From the NCBI GenBank assembly GCA_014905635.1, contig JABVCE010000013.1, positions 310,001 to 374,000 of the forward strand: a DNA stretch of 64,000 bases. Direction: 5' to 3'. Within the stretch, counting starts at the first letter, position 1, and every line of letters begins with the position of its first letter. The notes below the pieces were generated by a model, which saw only the letters and a program-made list of their open reading frames with translations, ran no database searches and was not told the origin of the DNA. Source of the DNA: Scenedesmus sp. PABB004 (taxonomy: Eukaryota). This document shows, piece by piece, positions 31,467-34,661 of the stretch. The translations under genes were made by a program, and so were the position numbers.

Positions 31467-31570
31467 CACGCCGCCGCCGCGTGGAAGGCATCAATTGCCC
31501 CGCTCGCGTCACCCGCAGCTACATCAGTCCGCCCCCAGCTCGCAGCCGTGACCCCGCAAGCCGCCGCGCA
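31467..31570 (+). repeat. Direct repeat copy 1 (~100 bp), homologous to 34527-34644
   Basis: Shared blocks cacgccgccgcc, catcaattgccccgctcg(c/t)gtcacc(c/t)gcagc(t/c)acat and ccagctcgcagccgtgaccccgca(a/g)gccgccg. Confidence 0.9.
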
Positions 31571-31862
31571 CACTCGCGCGGCGGCCGCGCGGCACGGCGG
31601 CCGCTGGTCGGCGATCGCTGCTGGCTCGACGCCTGTGCGTGCAGCGCTGGGATGTGTCTGCCGACACCGAAACTCAGGCTTCCGGCTTGTCAGAGCGCCG
31701 TGGCGGGCGGTCGTAAAACTGGGAGTGGGCGGCGGCGAGGTGAGGCATCACCGGAAATGCCCACGCTCGCCCCCTGCGGCCAGCCCCACTCTCGCGCCGC
31801 CGCCCAGTCCGCGAAACATAGCTCGACGCGCCGCGTGGTGCCGCTCTCGCTCGCGCGGCGCC

Positions 31863-34367
31863 ATGGCAAGCTCCCGATCGCAGCGCCGACCGCCGCTGGC
31901 GCCGCTGGCGGCGCTCCTCCTGCTGGTCGCAGGCCGCGGCTGCTCGGCCTGCACGGAGGTCAGCACGGCACCGGCGCCGGCACGGTCGCGGGCCCGGGGT
32001 CGGCCGCGCCGCTGCCGCGACTGGGCCCGCTGCCACCGCTGGTGACGCCGCGCTCGCACGACCGGTCACCCGCGCGCGCGGCGCGCCGCCCGCCGCGCCG
32101 CGGCTGCGCAGGTCATCCTGAAGGACAAGTGCACCGCCGACGCGGTGGTGTCGGGGCGCACGATGTCGTTCCCTATCTCGCTGACGCCCGCGGTCTCCTG
32201 GGCGGCGGCGGGCGCGAAGCTGACGATGCTGCCCATCGCGCCGGGCCGGGACTCGACGTTTGGGGTGACCGTGACGGTCAAGATTCCATTCGTCTGCATC
32301 ACCCACGCGCGCTACGAGCTCGGCCAGCTCTTCCCGCAGTCCGACCCCATCAACGGCAAGGACTTTTTCTGGGTGCGCCGGCGCGCGCGGAGGACGCGCG
32401 GGCGCGCGGCGGAGCGCCCCCGGCGCCCACGCGCGCGCGCGCGCGGCGCGGACGCGGCCGCCGCCGCGCCGCCCGCAGTGCATCGACGGCCTGAACGCAA
32501 AGGGCCTCTCCGCTGCGGTGCTGGTGCGCGCGCCGCGCGCGCCGAGCGCCGCGCGCGCCGCACCCCCCGCCCGCTCCCCTCCCGGGGCCCGGCCTCCCGC
32601 GCGCCCCCGACCCGCGCGCCCCCGCCCCCCGTCCCGCCGCCTCGCCACGCCCCGCGCGCGGCCGCGCAGTACCAGGCCGAGTCTGTCGGCATGGCCGGCT
32701 ACGACGCCGCCAGCCCCAAGCGCGACGCCATCAACTTCATGAACCTCGGCGCCTTTGCGCTCGCGCGCTTCGACACCGTCGCGCCGCTGCGCCGCTTCCT
32801 GCGCGGCGGCCTGCAGGCGCGGCGGCGCGCGCCCGCGCCCGCGCGCCGCGGCGTGGCGCGGCGCGCGCGGGGGCTGGCAGCCCCCCGAGCGCGGCGCCGC
32901 CCGCCCGCCCGCCCGCCGCGCCCCGCGCACCGCCGGCAGGTCGTGTGGTCGCCCACGTACGACAAGTTTGGCAACGCGCTCAGCCAGGGCAAGGCGGACA
33001 ACCCCACGCTGCACGTGACCTTCCACGACGCGACGCGACAGGCGCGCGGCGCGCCGCCGCGGCGCGGCGCCGGCCCAGGCCCGCCGCGCGCGGGGCGCGT
33101 CGCGTGCCGCCGCCGGGCGCGCCCCTCCCCCGACATGCGCGCGCGCCGCTCGCCTCCCGGCAGGCGATAGCCTCGTCGTGCAGTGGCGCGCCGGCAAGAT
33201 GGAGGTGCTGGACAACCCGCTCGGCGTGTTTGCCAACAACCCGCTGCTCCAGGAAAGTTACAAGGCGCGCGGGCGGAGCCGCCGCCCGATGCCGGCCGGC
33301 TCTGCCGGGCTGTGCGTGGCGGGGGCGCGCGGCGCACAGGCCCGCGCGGGCCCGCGCCTCACGCCGCCTGCCCGCGCGCGCGCGCGCGCGCGCGCCGGCC
33401 CCCGCCGCGGCCGCAGCACCACGCGGAGTACCGGCGCAAGATGTTTGCAAACCCCAAGGGCGTCGCGCCGCCGGTGCGCGACCTCGGCGCGACCGACGTC
33501 GTTGACGCCGCGACGACGCAGCACCTGTTCTGGCCGGTGCCGGGTGCGCGGCCGCGCGGGCGCGCCGCGGCCCGCCGAGCGCGCCACGCCGGCGTGGCGC
33601 GGGCCCGCGCCGACCCCCGACCCGCGGCGCGCAGGCGACTACAGCGGCCCGTCGCGCTTCACGCGCCTCGCGCTCGTCAAGGAGGCCGCGCTGGGCGAGT
33701 GCTGGCGCAACACGAGCGCCCTCTTCCCAAAGCTCTACGAGACAGGTGATGCGGCGGCGCAGGGCCCTCCTCGGGAGGCGGCGGCCACGCGCGCGCGTGC
33801 ACTCCTCGGGAGCCGCCCCGACGCGCCGCGCGCCGCCGCGCGAGCCCGGGGCGCTGACGCGGCGCCGCCGCCGGCCCGGGCCGCCCCGCCGTGCGCGCAG
33901 CCAACCCGGACTACGTGTGGAAGGGCGCGCCGGCGTCAAACCCGACCCTCTTGACGGTGCTGGGCATCATCAATACCGTCTACCTGCCCAACGGTGCGGC
34001 GCCGCACCACCTGCCGCGGCGCGGCGGCCGCCCGCGGCGTTCACTCGCCGCGCCGTGCCGCCGCCGCCGCCGCGCCAGGCATCGACGACTCTGGCGGCCG
34101 CGGCCCGAGCAAGATGCCCGAGTTCACCGTCTACACCACGCTGCGCGACCACAGGGCGCGCGTGTTTTACTACCGCACGGCCAACACCCCCAGTTCAAGG
34201 CGGTCGACCTCAAGCGCGTCGACTGGGCCGCGCTGCCGGGCGCCACCGCGATGACCTACCTCGCGCCCGCGCCGGAGCCCTGGTTCGCGGACCACTCCAA
34301 CGAGTTCAAACGCGGCGTCTGGGGGACCGGGTCGCTCAAGATGGTCACCGACGGCCCCGGGCGCTAG
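31863..34367 (+). CDS. Secreted Ntn-hydrolase of the choloylglycine hydrolase / penicillin V acylase (CBAH) family
   Basis: Signal peptide ...LAALLLLVAGRGCSA, then CTE-VILK...VVSGRTMSF, CIDGLNAKGLSAAVL-Y, LHVTFHDAT-GDSLVVQW, NPLGVFANNP, PGDYSGPSRF and TVYTTLRDHRARVFYYRT. Apparent frame disruptions near 33035 and 34185. Confidence 0.88.
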
Positions 34368-34526
34368 CTGCGCGGCGCCGCGCTGCGTGCTGCGCGCGCA
34401 TGCGGGGCGCCGCTGGCCTGCCCTGCCCAGCCAGAGCGGCCGGCTGGCACGGTTGGGCCGCTGTGGCACGCATCGCTGAGCAAGCAGCGCCTGAGCGAGT
34501 TTAACGAACGACAACCGCCACAACAC

Positions 34527-34644
34527 CACGCCGCCGCCCCGCGCCATCAATTGCCCCGCTCGTGTCACCTGCAGCCACATTATTCCGCCGCCGCCACATT
34601 ATTCCGCCGCCAGCTCGCAGCCGTGACCCCGCAGGCCGCCGAGC
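34527..34644 (+). repeat. Direct repeat copy 2, with an internal 19-bp tandem duplication; promoter/5'UTR region of the gene at 34662
   Basis: Homologous to 31467-31570. The unit gccacattattccgccgcc occurs twice. The repeat ends about 17 bp before the ATG at 34662. Confidence 0.9.
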
Positions 34645-34661
34645 AGCACGCACCAGACAAC

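Follow-up and report, generated by a model that had tools for sequence, protein, structure and literature searches.

A ten-exon nuclear gene for a CBAH-family (MEROPS C59) cysteine Ntn amidohydrolase, probably of old bacterial origin, in the green alga Scenedesmus sp. PABB004

Gene structure at the locus

The window analysed here is a 64-kb stretch of contig JABVCE010000013.1 of Scenedesmus sp. PABB004. Its GC content is 0.795, and the published GC content of the genome is 78.5%, as given in excerpts of PMC12571836. On the forward strand the window carries a nuclear gene, for which a spliced model was derived from the sequence. Its features are listed below, and the residue numbers used throughout (Cys30, Arg48, Ser51, Tyr136, Asn243 and Arg301) are those of the spliced window model of about 457 residues.

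31863..34367, + strand: gene of 10 exons and 9 introns, from the start ATG at 31863 to the stop TAG at 34365-34367
31863..31958, + strand: exon 1; GT donor, boundary identical in the NCBI 764-aa model
31863..31949, + strand: signal peptide MASSRSQRRPPLAPLAALLLLVAGRGCSA, 29 codons, inside exon 1 (rule-based reading)
31950..31952, + strand: predicted N-terminal nucleophile Cys30, the first residue of C-T-E in the spliced model
32112..32372, + strand: exon 2; conserved Arg at 32157-32159, Ser in place of BSH Asp21 at 32166-32168
32479..32523, + strand: exon 3; encodes CIDGLNAKGLSAAVL
32670..32816, + strand: exon 4; first codon Tyr (Asn in BSH), GC donor
32940..33041, + strand: exon 5; GC donor that is also used by the NCBI model, phase-0 end that clashes with exon 6
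33164..33264, + strand: exon 6; reading frame starts at 33166, GC donor, oxyanion-hole Asn of ANNP at 33235-33237
33417..33543, + strand: exon 7 (splice reading)
33635..33745, + strand: exon 8; PSRF with a conserved Arg (33655-33657)
33901..33993, + strand: exon 9 (splice reading)
34079..34367, + strand: exon 10; ends with the TAG, C-terminus VTDGPGR resembling the VTKGGA of the ortholog
34187..34191, + strand: second frame break, a run of five C in exon 10

The introns are 85-155 nt long with a GC content of 0.86-0.95; six of the nine are GT-AG introns and the other three are GC-AG introns with the donor GCGCG. The preliminary description of this DNA had spoken of about eight spliceosomal introns, and introns are indeed present, with the count corrected to nine. 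Third codon positions in the exons have a GC content of 0.937, and exon 2 is 100% identical to the NCBI protein HT031_004208 of Scenedesmus sp. PABB004.

Together the exons make up 1372 nt, a number not divisible by three, and the reading frame is broken at two points. The first break lies at the junction of exons 5 and 6, where the phase-0 end of exon 5 meets an exon 6 that requires one base from its predecessor; no canonical junction joins the two in frame. Other junctions, namely an acceptor after ATAG at 33170, GC donors within exon 5 and the CAG ahead of TGG as a start, were rejected because each meets a stop or deletes residues conserved across the aligned relatives. At the second break, six C instead of five would be required for YYRTANTPQFKAVDLKRVDW to be read in one frame, and the ortholog from Tetradesmus obliquus reads YYRTANNPVYKAIDFNKIDW without a gap; a small intron at this position was rejected because the ortholog alignment crosses it gaplessly. 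As assembled, the gene would need two corrections of its frame before it could yield the complete enzyme.

Because the assembly breaks the frame twice, the NCBI 764-aa model skips the ANNP exon (exon 6) and continues its frame into the next gene. This is the only splice variant that stays in frame, and it is without the exon that carries the oxyanion-hole Asn; the Tetradesmus ortholog has a counterpart of this exon, SLVVQWRDGKMEVLDNPLGVFANDPLLQDNYK. The public gene model is wrong in three places, with a skipped exon, an invented intron around the frameshift and a fusion to the next gene.

Signal peptide and N-terminal cysteine

The 29-residue leader MASSRSQRRPPLAPLAALLLLVAGRGCSA has an n-region with three Arg and an h-region, LAALLLLVAG, whose ten residues have a mean Kyte-Doolittle value of 2.82. 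Small residues occupy the -3 and -1 positions (C-S-A) and are followed by Cys-Thr-Glu at 31950-31958. By rule-based reading, this agrees with the earlier claim that a signal peptide ends directly before C-T-E. A chloroplast transit peptide was considered and rejected because of the ten-residue hydrophobic core. It should be noted that a predicted leader of this kind shows entry into the secretory pathway and not release into the phycosphere.

The position of the cysteine is shared across the family. Cys21 of the Tetradesmus ortholog corresponds to position 1 of the Pfam CBAH profile and to residue 1 or 2 of the solved BSH and PVA chains; Cys occupies the nucleophile column in 102 of the 103 rows that have a residue there, and a signal-peptide-like leader immediately ahead of it is the rule among the relatives. 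In the alignment to a bacteria-only profile, 'eaeaCtgirlk..gRtlEf' is paired with 'GCSACTEVILK..GRTMSF' of the window protein. For example, periplasmic CGHs of Gram-negative bacteria, such as the PVAs of Pectobacterium atrosepticum (4wl2) and Agrobacterium tumefaciens (5j9r), have a signal peptide that ends at the nucleophile Cys, and oomycete proteins annotated as 'cysteine protease family C59' (Phytophthora, Aphanomyces, Achlya, Lagenidium) have a signal peptide followed by Cys-Ser/Thr. The BSHs of Firmicutes, unlike the algal protein, are cytosolic, start with Met-Cys and are without a signal peptide.

The following course of maturation would fit this arrangement. The signal peptide would bring the protein into the endoplasmic reticulum, and signal peptidase would cut between Ala29 and Cys30; a cut at this site would mean that the mature protein begins with Cys, whose free alpha-amino group and thiol would together form the catalytic centre. 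Autoproteolysis would not be required, as in the bacterial members that bear a signal peptide.

Family assignment by profile and fold

Against a profile of 96 relatives the spliced window protein reaches 289.4 bits, where the best of 200 shuffles has -0.4; against one made from 16 named bacterial proteins only it reaches 125.9 bits (best of 200 shuffles, 0.2). Pfam CBAH is matched by 94 of the 96 aligned relatives. The Tetradesmus ortholog (P0002; 50% identity, E 7e-126) matches it at 4.3e-28 and 99.3 bits, with residues 21-339 on profile positions 1-269, and a second relative (P0003) scores 57 bits. The NCBI model (P0001), which is defective in its lack of exon 6, reaches 18.2 bits on Pfam CBAH (PF02275) against a cut-off of 20.4, 15.6 bits on the NCBIfam bile_salt_hydro model (cut-off 350) and 12.4 bits on the NCBIfam PVA equivalog (cut-off 600), and this defective sequence has no significant match in NCBIfam or the PDB. 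When single exons, which are short, were scanned against Pfam, nine of the ten gave no CBAH match and exon 6 reached only E 0.074.

Structural evidence points in the same direction. It should be kept in mind that both the Pfam score and the fold come from the Tetradesmus ortholog, which is 50% identical to the window protein. A PDB profile search returned 33 matches at E <= 1, comprising 30 BSH/PVA entries and three weak fumarate-reductase entries (E 0.55-0.65), with the conjugated bile acid hydrolase of Clostridium perfringens (2bjf) as the top match at 7.6e-16. The ortholog model (pLDDT 87.3, pTM 0.88) likewise has 2bjf as its top Foldseek match (E 3.2e-25; TM 0.79 by target length; Z 35.7 across 320 residues). 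Its VIA Z against 42 BSH/PVA/CGH entries is 31.1-35.8 with 287-327 residues aligned, which includes values of 34.3 for 4wl2 and 32.5 for 5j9r. The Shewanella loihica enzyme SlCGH1 (5x8z), with 17% identity, shares both family and fold and is among the lowest-scoring CGH entries (Z 31.1-31.5). Taken together, the bacteria-only profile score and the ortholog fold bear out membership in the CBAH family (MEROPS C59).

Animal NAAA and acid ceramidase belong to the same Ntn superfamily and share with the algal protein a Cys nucleophile and routing through the secretory pathway. Grouping with these enzymes had been named beforehand as a result that would speak against the assignment, and it was not seen: the VIA Z of the ortholog model against NAAA, over its beta chain, is 16.8-17.1, about half of the BSH/PVA values, and neither acid ceramidase nor NAAA is among the 33 PDB profile matches (E <= 1). 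Their alpha-subunit propeptide is absent from the algal protein, which has just 29 leader residues ahead of the Cys and, unlike them, should have no need for autoproteolysis. Nor does the protein have the marks of a BSH, since Tyr rather than Asn stands at position 81/82 and the bile_salt_hydro score, obtained on the defective P0001, is below the cut-off; bile salts would in any case not readily suggest themselves as the substrate of an enzyme from a freshwater alga. Placing the gene in this family is not in itself novel, because relatives in Tetradesmus, Raphidocelis and Coccomyxa have already been annotated automatically as CBAH-domain proteins.

Active-site residues

All four motifs that had been proposed for this gene were found at the codon level: GR with Arg48 (32157-32159), DGLN..LY as DGLNAKGLSAAVL followed by Tyr136 (32670-32672), ANNP with Asn243 (33235-33237) and PSRF with Arg301 (33655-33657). 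Excerpts of PMC8066178 name Arg18, Asn175 and Arg228 (C. perfringens numbering) as conserved, and the window protein has an equivalent of each. Among 113 aligned rows the catalytic columns hold Cys in 102, Arg in 101, Asn in 112 and Arg in 113, and the window protein keeps all four. Arg48, the backbone of Tyr136, Asn243 and Arg301 would accordingly be available, by analogy with the family, for stabilisation of the thiolate and for the oxyanion hole.

The exception is the position three residues after the conserved Arg, which corresponds to Asp21 of BSH and is Ser51 here (codon 32166-32168). Ser occurs at this position in the window protein and four close relatives (P0002, P0003, P0004 and P0016), and Asp or Glu in 102 of the 107 rows that have a residue there. 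In this subclade, the acidic partner of the N-terminus would thus be replaced by Ser. Asp21 is described in excerpts of PMC8066178 as belonging to the catalytic Ntn-diad, and therefore the activity of the algal protein may be altered or lost. By fold, profile scores and its other residues the window protein is still assigned to the CBAH family, as a member with a variant active site.

The Tyr at the Asn82 position of BSH had been put forward as typical of penicillin V acylases. The Tyr is present, but it does not single out PVAs: in 113 aligned rows the column holds 49 Y, 35 W and a single N, and because an aromatic residue is common to 90 of the 110 rows with a residue there (the same Y and W, plus F in 6), it is non-discriminating within this branch. 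The Gram-negative CGHs have an aromatic residue at this position and the active-site Arg/Asn/Arg in common with the algal protein, whereas Firmicutes BSHs differ in having Asn instead of the Tyr. The window protein differs from the Gram-negative CGHs, with which it shares 18-23% identity, in several insertions that lengthen it by about 100 residues, in having Ser for the acidic Asp21 residue and in being encoded by a eukaryotic gene with nine introns. Where the alga has Ser, the oomycete C59 proteins have retained the Asp of Asp21 (GRSMD/ARTMD); at 473-866 residues they are also the longer proteins, and carry either C-terminal extensions or CBAH stretches in repeat (4-6 stretches matched).

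Phylogeny, distribution and origin

To place the gene, a careful IQ-TREE analysis of 66 rows, 35 of them without an organism label, was rooted on Firmicutes BSHs, which form a clade with 100/100 support and serve as an assumed root. The window protein groups with Tetradesmus (100/98) within a green-algal clade of 12 rows (100/99) that comprises Sphaeropleales and Coccomyxa, with the genera Tetradesmus, Hariotina, Raphidocelis, Monoraphidium and Coccomyxa. The oomycete C59 proteins are the nearest named relatives outside the algae, and the two groups form a joint clade with 94/81 support. This pairing varies with the taxon set, from 97-98 in quick trees to a three-way fork in another tree and 94/81 in the careful tree. 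The algal clade sits under successive nodes that add named bacteria (100/99 for 36 rows, 100/99 for 52 and 98/96 for 57), and the Gram-negative CGHs lie on the same side as these bacterial relatives with respect to the Firmicutes BSHs. An alternative in which eukaryotes are kept with the outgroup, and are not nested among prokaryotes, was rejected by the AU test (p-AU 0.0255), the tested group having been chosen after the tree was inspected.

Relatives are widespread in bacteria: of 588 pattern matches obtained in species genomes, 584 encode one, and these cover many phyla, with 19-29% identity for the bacterial representatives. Only a few eukaryotes are named among the holders, and their distribution is patchy; among 30 representatives and the other named matches they consist of six green algae (Sphaeropleales/Coccomyxa) and five oomycetes. 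The Sphaeropleales have several paralogous subclades, with at least two loci in Tetradesmus and two in Monoraphidium. A 20-sequence profile retrieved only seven proteins in a word-indexed search. Narrow patterns, some of them crossing intron positions of the window gene, gave scans that say little: none was confirmed of 47 matches in prokaryotic genomes (two-sequence algal pattern), of 54 and 134 matches in JGI metagenome contigs (P0004 query and three-sequence alignment, respectively) or of 10 matches in viral contigs (seven-sequence algal alignment).

Since the algal clade is nested in prokaryotic diversity and the non-nested tree is rejected, an old bacterial origin is reasonable, and acquisition from bacteria with later gain of host-like introns and codon usage is plausible from the sequence. 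The proposal of an old, intronised horizontal acquisition finds partial support here, with the qualification that the gene is not private to PABB004. A quite different history, to which we give a fairly low probability, is that of an ancient eukaryotic lineage that was inherited vertically with many losses and without any bacterial transfer. Such a history would sit well with the union of green algae and oomycetes in most trees (97-98 and 94/81), with the lack of a close bacterial donor at 19-29% identity and with a eukaryote-rich (Cnidaria) CBAH cluster in the protein atlas, which is among the nearest to the ortholog. However, it would have to accommodate the position of the clade under several strongly supported nodes with named bacteria when Firmicutes BSHs are the root, the p-AU of 0.0255 and the patchiness of the few eukaryotic holders. 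On balance, our best explanation of the locus, which we hold to be probable, is a ten-exon nuclear gene of PABB004 for a CBAH/MEROPS C59 cysteine Ntn amidohydrolase that was acquired from bacteria long ago, and whose frame breaks are likelier to be assembly errors.

Possible substrates and roles

The most likely reaction would be cleavage of a non-peptide amide that bears a hydrophobic acyl group, and two kinds of substrate can be weighed. In the first scenario, the enzyme would be released into the phycosphere and cleave bacterial N-acyl-homoserine lactones (AHLs), so that the alga would quench quorum sensing. The nucleophile directly after the signal peptide, the shared signal-peptide-bearing branch with Gram-negative CGHs and the likeness of the ortholog model to the Pectobacterium and Agrobacterium PVAs (Z 34.3 and 32.5) and to the Shewanella loihica CGH (5x8z/5x9i, Z 31.1-31.5) are all consistent with this role. 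A 2017 paper by Sunder reportedly deals with Gram-negative PVA and AHL. The Shewanella enzymes are described in the abstract of bioRxiv 10.1101/788646 as active on AHLs and not on penicillin V or bile salts, and the AHL-only activity reported for SlCGH1 indicates that the CGH fold can include AHL acylases.

Nevertheless, the fold gives no pointer to a substrate, because BSHs, Gram-positive PVAs and AHL-active enzymes are tied within about 4 Z units, and identity to any characterised enzyme is 17-23%. The insertions of about 100 residues and the Ser at Asp21 in the algal proteins make it likely that the pocket is different, and a signal peptide is equally compatible with a vacuolar or wall-bound fate. 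A search of the literature on choloylglycine hydrolase or AHL-acylase quorum quenching in green algae and microalgae turned up no publication about an algal enzyme of this kind, and the passages searched of a cell-wall proteome paper (PMC11839794) mention neither the protein nor the family. AHL hydrolysis by this protein is conjectural, and we regard quorum quenching by the alga as improbable.

In the second scenario, the protein would be an endomembrane or vacuolar lipid amidase, a functional analogue of animal acid ceramidase or NAAA whose substrates are N-acyl lipids of the alga itself (N-acylethanolamines, ceramide-like or N-acyl amino-acid lipids) and not bacterial signals. Lysosomal amidases likewise travel by way of entry into the secretory pathway, as would the algal protein, whose catalytic machinery belongs to the superfamily of NAAA (Z 16.8-17.1); moreover, several paralogous subclades in Sphaeropleales look like housekeeping rather than a single weapon. 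The Cys directly after the signal peptide, with no alpha-subunit propeptide in between, and the absence of both enzymes from the 33 PDB profile matches argue against so close an analogy, and we consider this role unlikely, though somewhat less so than AHL quenching.

A more elaborate version can also be imagined, in which a periplasmic CGH of bacteria was domesticated by chlorophytes, and perhaps by oomycetes in one shared or linked event, with its Cys now exposed by the eukaryotic signal peptidase. The Scenedesmaceae would have rebuilt its centre with Ser for an acidic residue that is otherwise almost universal, and the exported enzyme would destroy the acyl-amide signals of partner bacteria as a quorum quencher of the CGH fold encoded by a eukaryote; we regard this as very improbable. 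Whatever its substrate, the protein would, if active, be a eukaryotic, intron-bearing member of an enzyme family that has been studied almost only in bacteria, distinguished by an unusual Ser where a catalytic residue is expected and by lineage-specific insertions that total about 100 residues. It would also be a concrete candidate for the processing of acyl-amides in algae, whether their own lipids or bacterial signals. The points concerning the gene model and the assembly are surer than this enzymatic meaning.

Nature of the frame breaks

The two breaks could be real, in which case the gene would be a recent pseudogene and PABB004 would have no full-length enzyme. Two independent disruptions within 1.37 kb of coding sequence are in keeping with such a loss, and the annotators' pipeline likewise produced no intact model. 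On the other hand, each break adjoins short runs of G or C, in an assembly of 77 contigs at 78.5% GC (according to excerpts of PMC12571836); both flanks of each break align gaplessly to the ortholog, with 60-61% identity over about 350 kept columns; and every catalytic residue apart from the Asp21 equivalent is retained. Differences from a near-identical freshwater strain are also mostly synonymous, in what is a small sample: eight coding-site differences are listed in its contigs, five of them synonymous on their own, and in the mature part four of five are synonymous. We therefore judge a pseudogene to be possible but rather doubtful, and homopolymer errors in the long-read assembly of this GC-rich DNA are the likelier cause of the breaks. 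If so, the assembly may contain homopolymer indels within other genes, which bears on the low gene count of 7,092 given in excerpts of PMC12571836.

Among sequencing runs, none from RNA was listed as containing this locus, and two freshwater metagenome runs contain 0.08 and 0.06 of the sampled words. Their contigs, which represent the near-identical strain, span parts of exons 1, 2 and 6 only, with neither frame break covered. Most of the remaining metagenome pieces are short GC-rich partial matches.

Gene structure and composition

The locus at window positions 31863-34367 (+) is a genuine gene and belongs to a known family, the choloylglycine hydrolases (Pfam CBAH). Three-frame translation combined with located splice boundaries gave a plus-strand model of ten exons, and the gene limits proposed in the preliminary description, a start at 31863 and a stop at 34367, proved exact.

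Exons of the amidase gene (window coordinates; each placed from translation and splice boundaries)
Exon 1: 31863-31958, + strand
Exon 2: 32112-32372, + strand
Exon 3: 32479-32523, + strand
Exon 4: 32670-32816, + strand
Exon 5: 32940-33041, + strand
Exon 6: 33164-33264, + strand
Exon 7: 33417-33543, + strand
Exon 8: 33635-33745, + strand
Exon 9: 33901-33993, + strand
Exon 10: 34079-34367, + strand

Intron lengths range over 85-155 nt and intron GC content over 0.86-0.95. Of the nine introns, six have GT-AG ends and three (introns 4, 5, and 6, beginning at 32817, 33042, and 33265) are GC-AG, each with a GCGCG donor following an exon-final AG. For a single gene this proportion is high, perhaps a trait of this very GC-rich genome; the published Scenedesmus sp. 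PABB004 genome (PMC12571836) comprises 77 contigs totaling 39.8 Mb, has a GC content of 78.5%, and carries 7,092 genes, and window GC is 0.74-0.84 all along (0.795 overall). GC content is 0.687 in the exons and 0.937 at their third codon positions, and these values together with those of the introns make the gene look fully native in composition.

The summed exon length of 1372 nt is not a multiple of three, and the preliminary description overlooked two breaks in the reading frame. At the first, phase 0 is reached at the end of exon 5 (33041) and exon 6, whose only good acceptor is 33163/33164, needs one base from the preceding exon. At the second, the frame of exon 10 shifts at a five-C run (34187-34191), across which the Tetradesmus obliquus ortholog (P0002) is uninterrupted (YYRTANNPVYKAIDF versus YYRTANTP/QFKAVDL). 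Since each break coincides with a short run of G or C and the assembly is of long-read style, we favor assembly error as their probable cause over real lesions. In two freshwater metagenome runs, which cover exons but neither break site, five of the eight differences listed are synonymous when taken singly (four of five in the mature part), lending slight support to recent constraint. Over window 31700-34500, these runs (X1 and X2) yield short contigs that are almost identical to stretches of the gene, for instance one of 151 bases without a difference and one of 265 bases with 4, so close relatives of strain PABB004 occur in the wild.

Over exon 2, the gene matches the NCBI protein HT031_004208 of this strain at 100% identity. 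The public gene model of the locus (P0001, 764 aa) is wrong: it leaves out exon 6, which carries the Asn of the ANNP motif, cuts an artificial intron around the exon 10 frameshift, and splices from ...GSLKM beyond the true stop and on into the downstream gene (34348-34612 onward, +), creating a chimera with an Ala/Gln-rich product (MRATLSTRRG...). The C-terminus of the spliced model, ...KMVTDGPGR, matches that of the ortholog P0002, ...KELVTKGGA. This error deserves to be recorded along with the two frame breaks; similar fusions, if common, could account for some of the assembly's low gene count (7,092).

Family membership and predicted fold

The defective P0001 scores 18.2 bits on Pfam CBAH against a cut-off of 20.4, and single exons are too short to score usefully. 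A search with a 394-residue part of P0001 recovered P0002 (450 aa, 50% identity, E 7e-126) and another close relative, P0003 (432 aa, 33% identity), which match Pfam CBAH from the Cys onward at 4.3e-28 and 3.3e-15, respectively. A profile of these two returned 1052 proteins at E <= 0.001 from 1.84 billion representatives, only 22 of them at E <= 1e-30, indicating that the clade is small and set apart. CBAH is matched by 94 of 96 aligned full-length-like relatives. The spliced window protein scores 289.4 bits against the profile of these 96 (best of 200 shuffles, -0.4); with a profile built solely from 16 named bacterial proteins, it reaches 125.9 bits (best of 200 shuffles, 0.2).

The predicted structure of P0002 (96-row alignment; pLDDT 87.3, pTM 0.88) has the C. 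perfringens bile acid hydrolase 2bjf as its top Foldseek match (E 3.2e-25). A second aligner gave Z scores of 31.1-35.8 to 42 bile salt hydrolase (BSH), penicillin V acylase (PVA), and choloylglycine hydrolase (CGH) entries, in which Cys21 of the model aligns to chain residue 1 or 2, whereas isopenicillin-N acyltransferase (19.4-19.8) and NAAA (16.8-17.1) are far less similar. The sequence profile matched 30 BSH/PVA sequences in the PDB and no ceramidase or NAAA. Both comparisons uphold the earlier proposal of a CBAH-type enzyme as opposed to an acid ceramidase or NAAA. As BSH and PVA entries are tied, the fold gives no indication of substrate.

Active site

Every sequence item listed in the preliminary description was recovered. 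The predicted signal peptide MASSRSQRRPPLAPLAALLLLVAGRGCSA, whose hydrophobic core is LAALLLLVAG (mean hydropathy 2.82) and whose -3 and -1 positions are occupied by small residues, ends right before Cys-Thr-Glu, and the family motifs GR, DGLNAKGLSAAVL-Y (the proposed DGLN..GL....LY), ANNP, and PSRF were all located at codon level. This architecture, a secretory-pathway leader joined directly to a Cys-Ntn amidase domain, is common to almost all relatives.

Active-site columns across an alignment of 113 rows (the window protein with 96 relatives and 16 bacteria)
Nucleophile Cys: C 102, 10 gaps, 1 D; window protein Cys
Arg: R 101; window protein Arg
Oxyanion-hole Asn: N 112; window protein Asn
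Second Arg: R 113; window protein Arg
BSH Asn position: Y 49, W 35, F 6, N 1; window protein Tyr
BSH Asp21 position: D/E 102, S 5, gaps 6; window protein Ser

The Tyr at the BSH Asn position, earlier read as typical of PVAs, is present and fits the PVA-type pattern set out in a review (PMC8066178), but it is the norm across the whole branch and carries little information. Ser at the Asp21 position is found in the window protein, Tetradesmus, P0003, P0004 (a further close relative), and one Monoraphidium protein; the same review describes Asp21 as the partner of the N-terminus in a catalytic diad. This Ser is kept among proteins of 33-50% identity that retain all other catalytic residues, which suggests a center that is variant yet probably working. 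We count it among the points worth keeping.

Evolutionary history

Names were looked up for 30 representatives, and further names came from other sequence searches. Five trees were reconstructed: FastTree with 111 rows (excluding proteins of <300 or >560 aa, cluster members P0152-P0171, P0001, and P0173); quick IQ-TREE with 63 rows (46 representatives, the window protein, and 16 of 80 bacterial loci), with 71 rows (adding 8 plasmid-borne genes, four of them Firmicutes bsh genes serving as outgroup), and with 66 rows (four long-branch rows and a Streptomyces row dropped); and careful IQ-TREE on the same 66 rows.

1. Algal sequences cluster together and are nested among bacterial sequences. Named holders in the nearest clade are chlorophytes without exception: Tetradesmus obliquus (two loci), Hariotina reticulata, Raphidocelis subcapitata, Monoraphidium minutum (two), and Coccomyxa viridis. 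This algal clade is robust; in the careful tree the window protein groups with Tetradesmus (100/98), and successive nodes add P0003/P0004 (99/92), Monoraphidium (99/91), the Raphidocelis group (98/94), and Coccomyxa (100/99). Beyond the oomycetes (see below), outer nodes (100/99, 100/99, and 98/96) successively take in named bacteria. The remaining large majority of relatives resembles proteins of many bacterial phyla; a pattern search of species genomes gave 588 matches, of which 584 encode relatives, with 35-50% identity to the bacterial-type query P0028. In a protein atlas, the neighbors of P0002 are one cluster rich in eukaryotes (Cnidaria) and two of Pseudomonadota, and an intermediate representative adjoins purely bacterial clusters. 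Constraining the eukaryotes with the outgroup cost 37.8 log-likelihood units (p-AU 0.0255, for a group picked after the tree was seen). Bacterial ancestry of the algal clade is likely, though dependent on an assumed root and on many rows that carry no organism label. The nesting of a chlorophyte, plus possibly oomycete, clade among bacterial sequences is likewise worth retaining.

2. Oomycetes may share the acquisition. The next nearest holders are Phytophthora infestans, P. cactorum, Aphanomyces stellatus, Achlya hypogyna, and Lagenidium giganteum. Their pairing with the algae received 97-98 in two quick trees, was an unresolved fork in another, and received 94/81 in the careful tree. The Aphanomyces, Lagenidium, and Achlya proteins (P0015, P0020, and P0021; 583-866 aa) align to the algal profile over 4-6 distinct segments, and the DNPNGVLTNDPPL stretch of the Aphanomyces protein is repeated in the alignment. 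The sequences suggest tandem CBAH domains and hydrophobic C-terminal segments in these oomycete relatives.

3. A viral link is neither supported nor excluded. A virion-protein table for Chlorella virus PBCV-1 (PMC3281028) lists A284L as 'Choloylglycine hydrolase', and one scan with the algal alignment found no relatives among viral contigs.

Potential substrates

Whatever is said here of the substrate and destination of the window protein, we infer. The preliminary description, which spotted the gene and its family correctly, had also proposed quenching of N-acyl-homoserine lactones (AHLs); the evidence carries its interpretation as a whole only in part. AHL hydrolysis by members of this fold was reportedly described by Sunder in 2017. 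The abstract of bioRxiv 10.1101/788646 attributes it to some members. The algal proteins, however, share just 17-23% identity with any characterized enzyme, hold about 100 extra residues in insertions, and carry the Ser variant. AHL quenching by the algal enzyme would be quite improbable. Action on the alga's own acyl-amides appears somewhat less improbable, though still unlikely, and the remaining probability falls to some other hydrophobic acyl-amide. Literature on green algae and microalgae, oomycete family C59, and microalgal AHL-acylase quorum quenching yielded no paper on an algal enzyme of the choloylglycine hydrolase family.

Flanking direct repeat

The gene sits between two copies of a direct repeat of ~90-110 nt (31483-31575 and 34533-34650, +), in which blocks of 48-58 nt are 88% identical. 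One 23-mer, CAGCTCGCAGCCGTGACCCCGCA, is present exactly twice across the 64 kb window; it appeared in 0 of 100 shuffles. About 290 nt separate the upstream copy from the ATG of the amidase gene, and the downstream copy, with an internal 19-nt duplication, lies just before the ATG of the next gene (about 34663). The repeat may represent a duplicated promoter or leader, or the target duplication of a 3.06-kb insertion.
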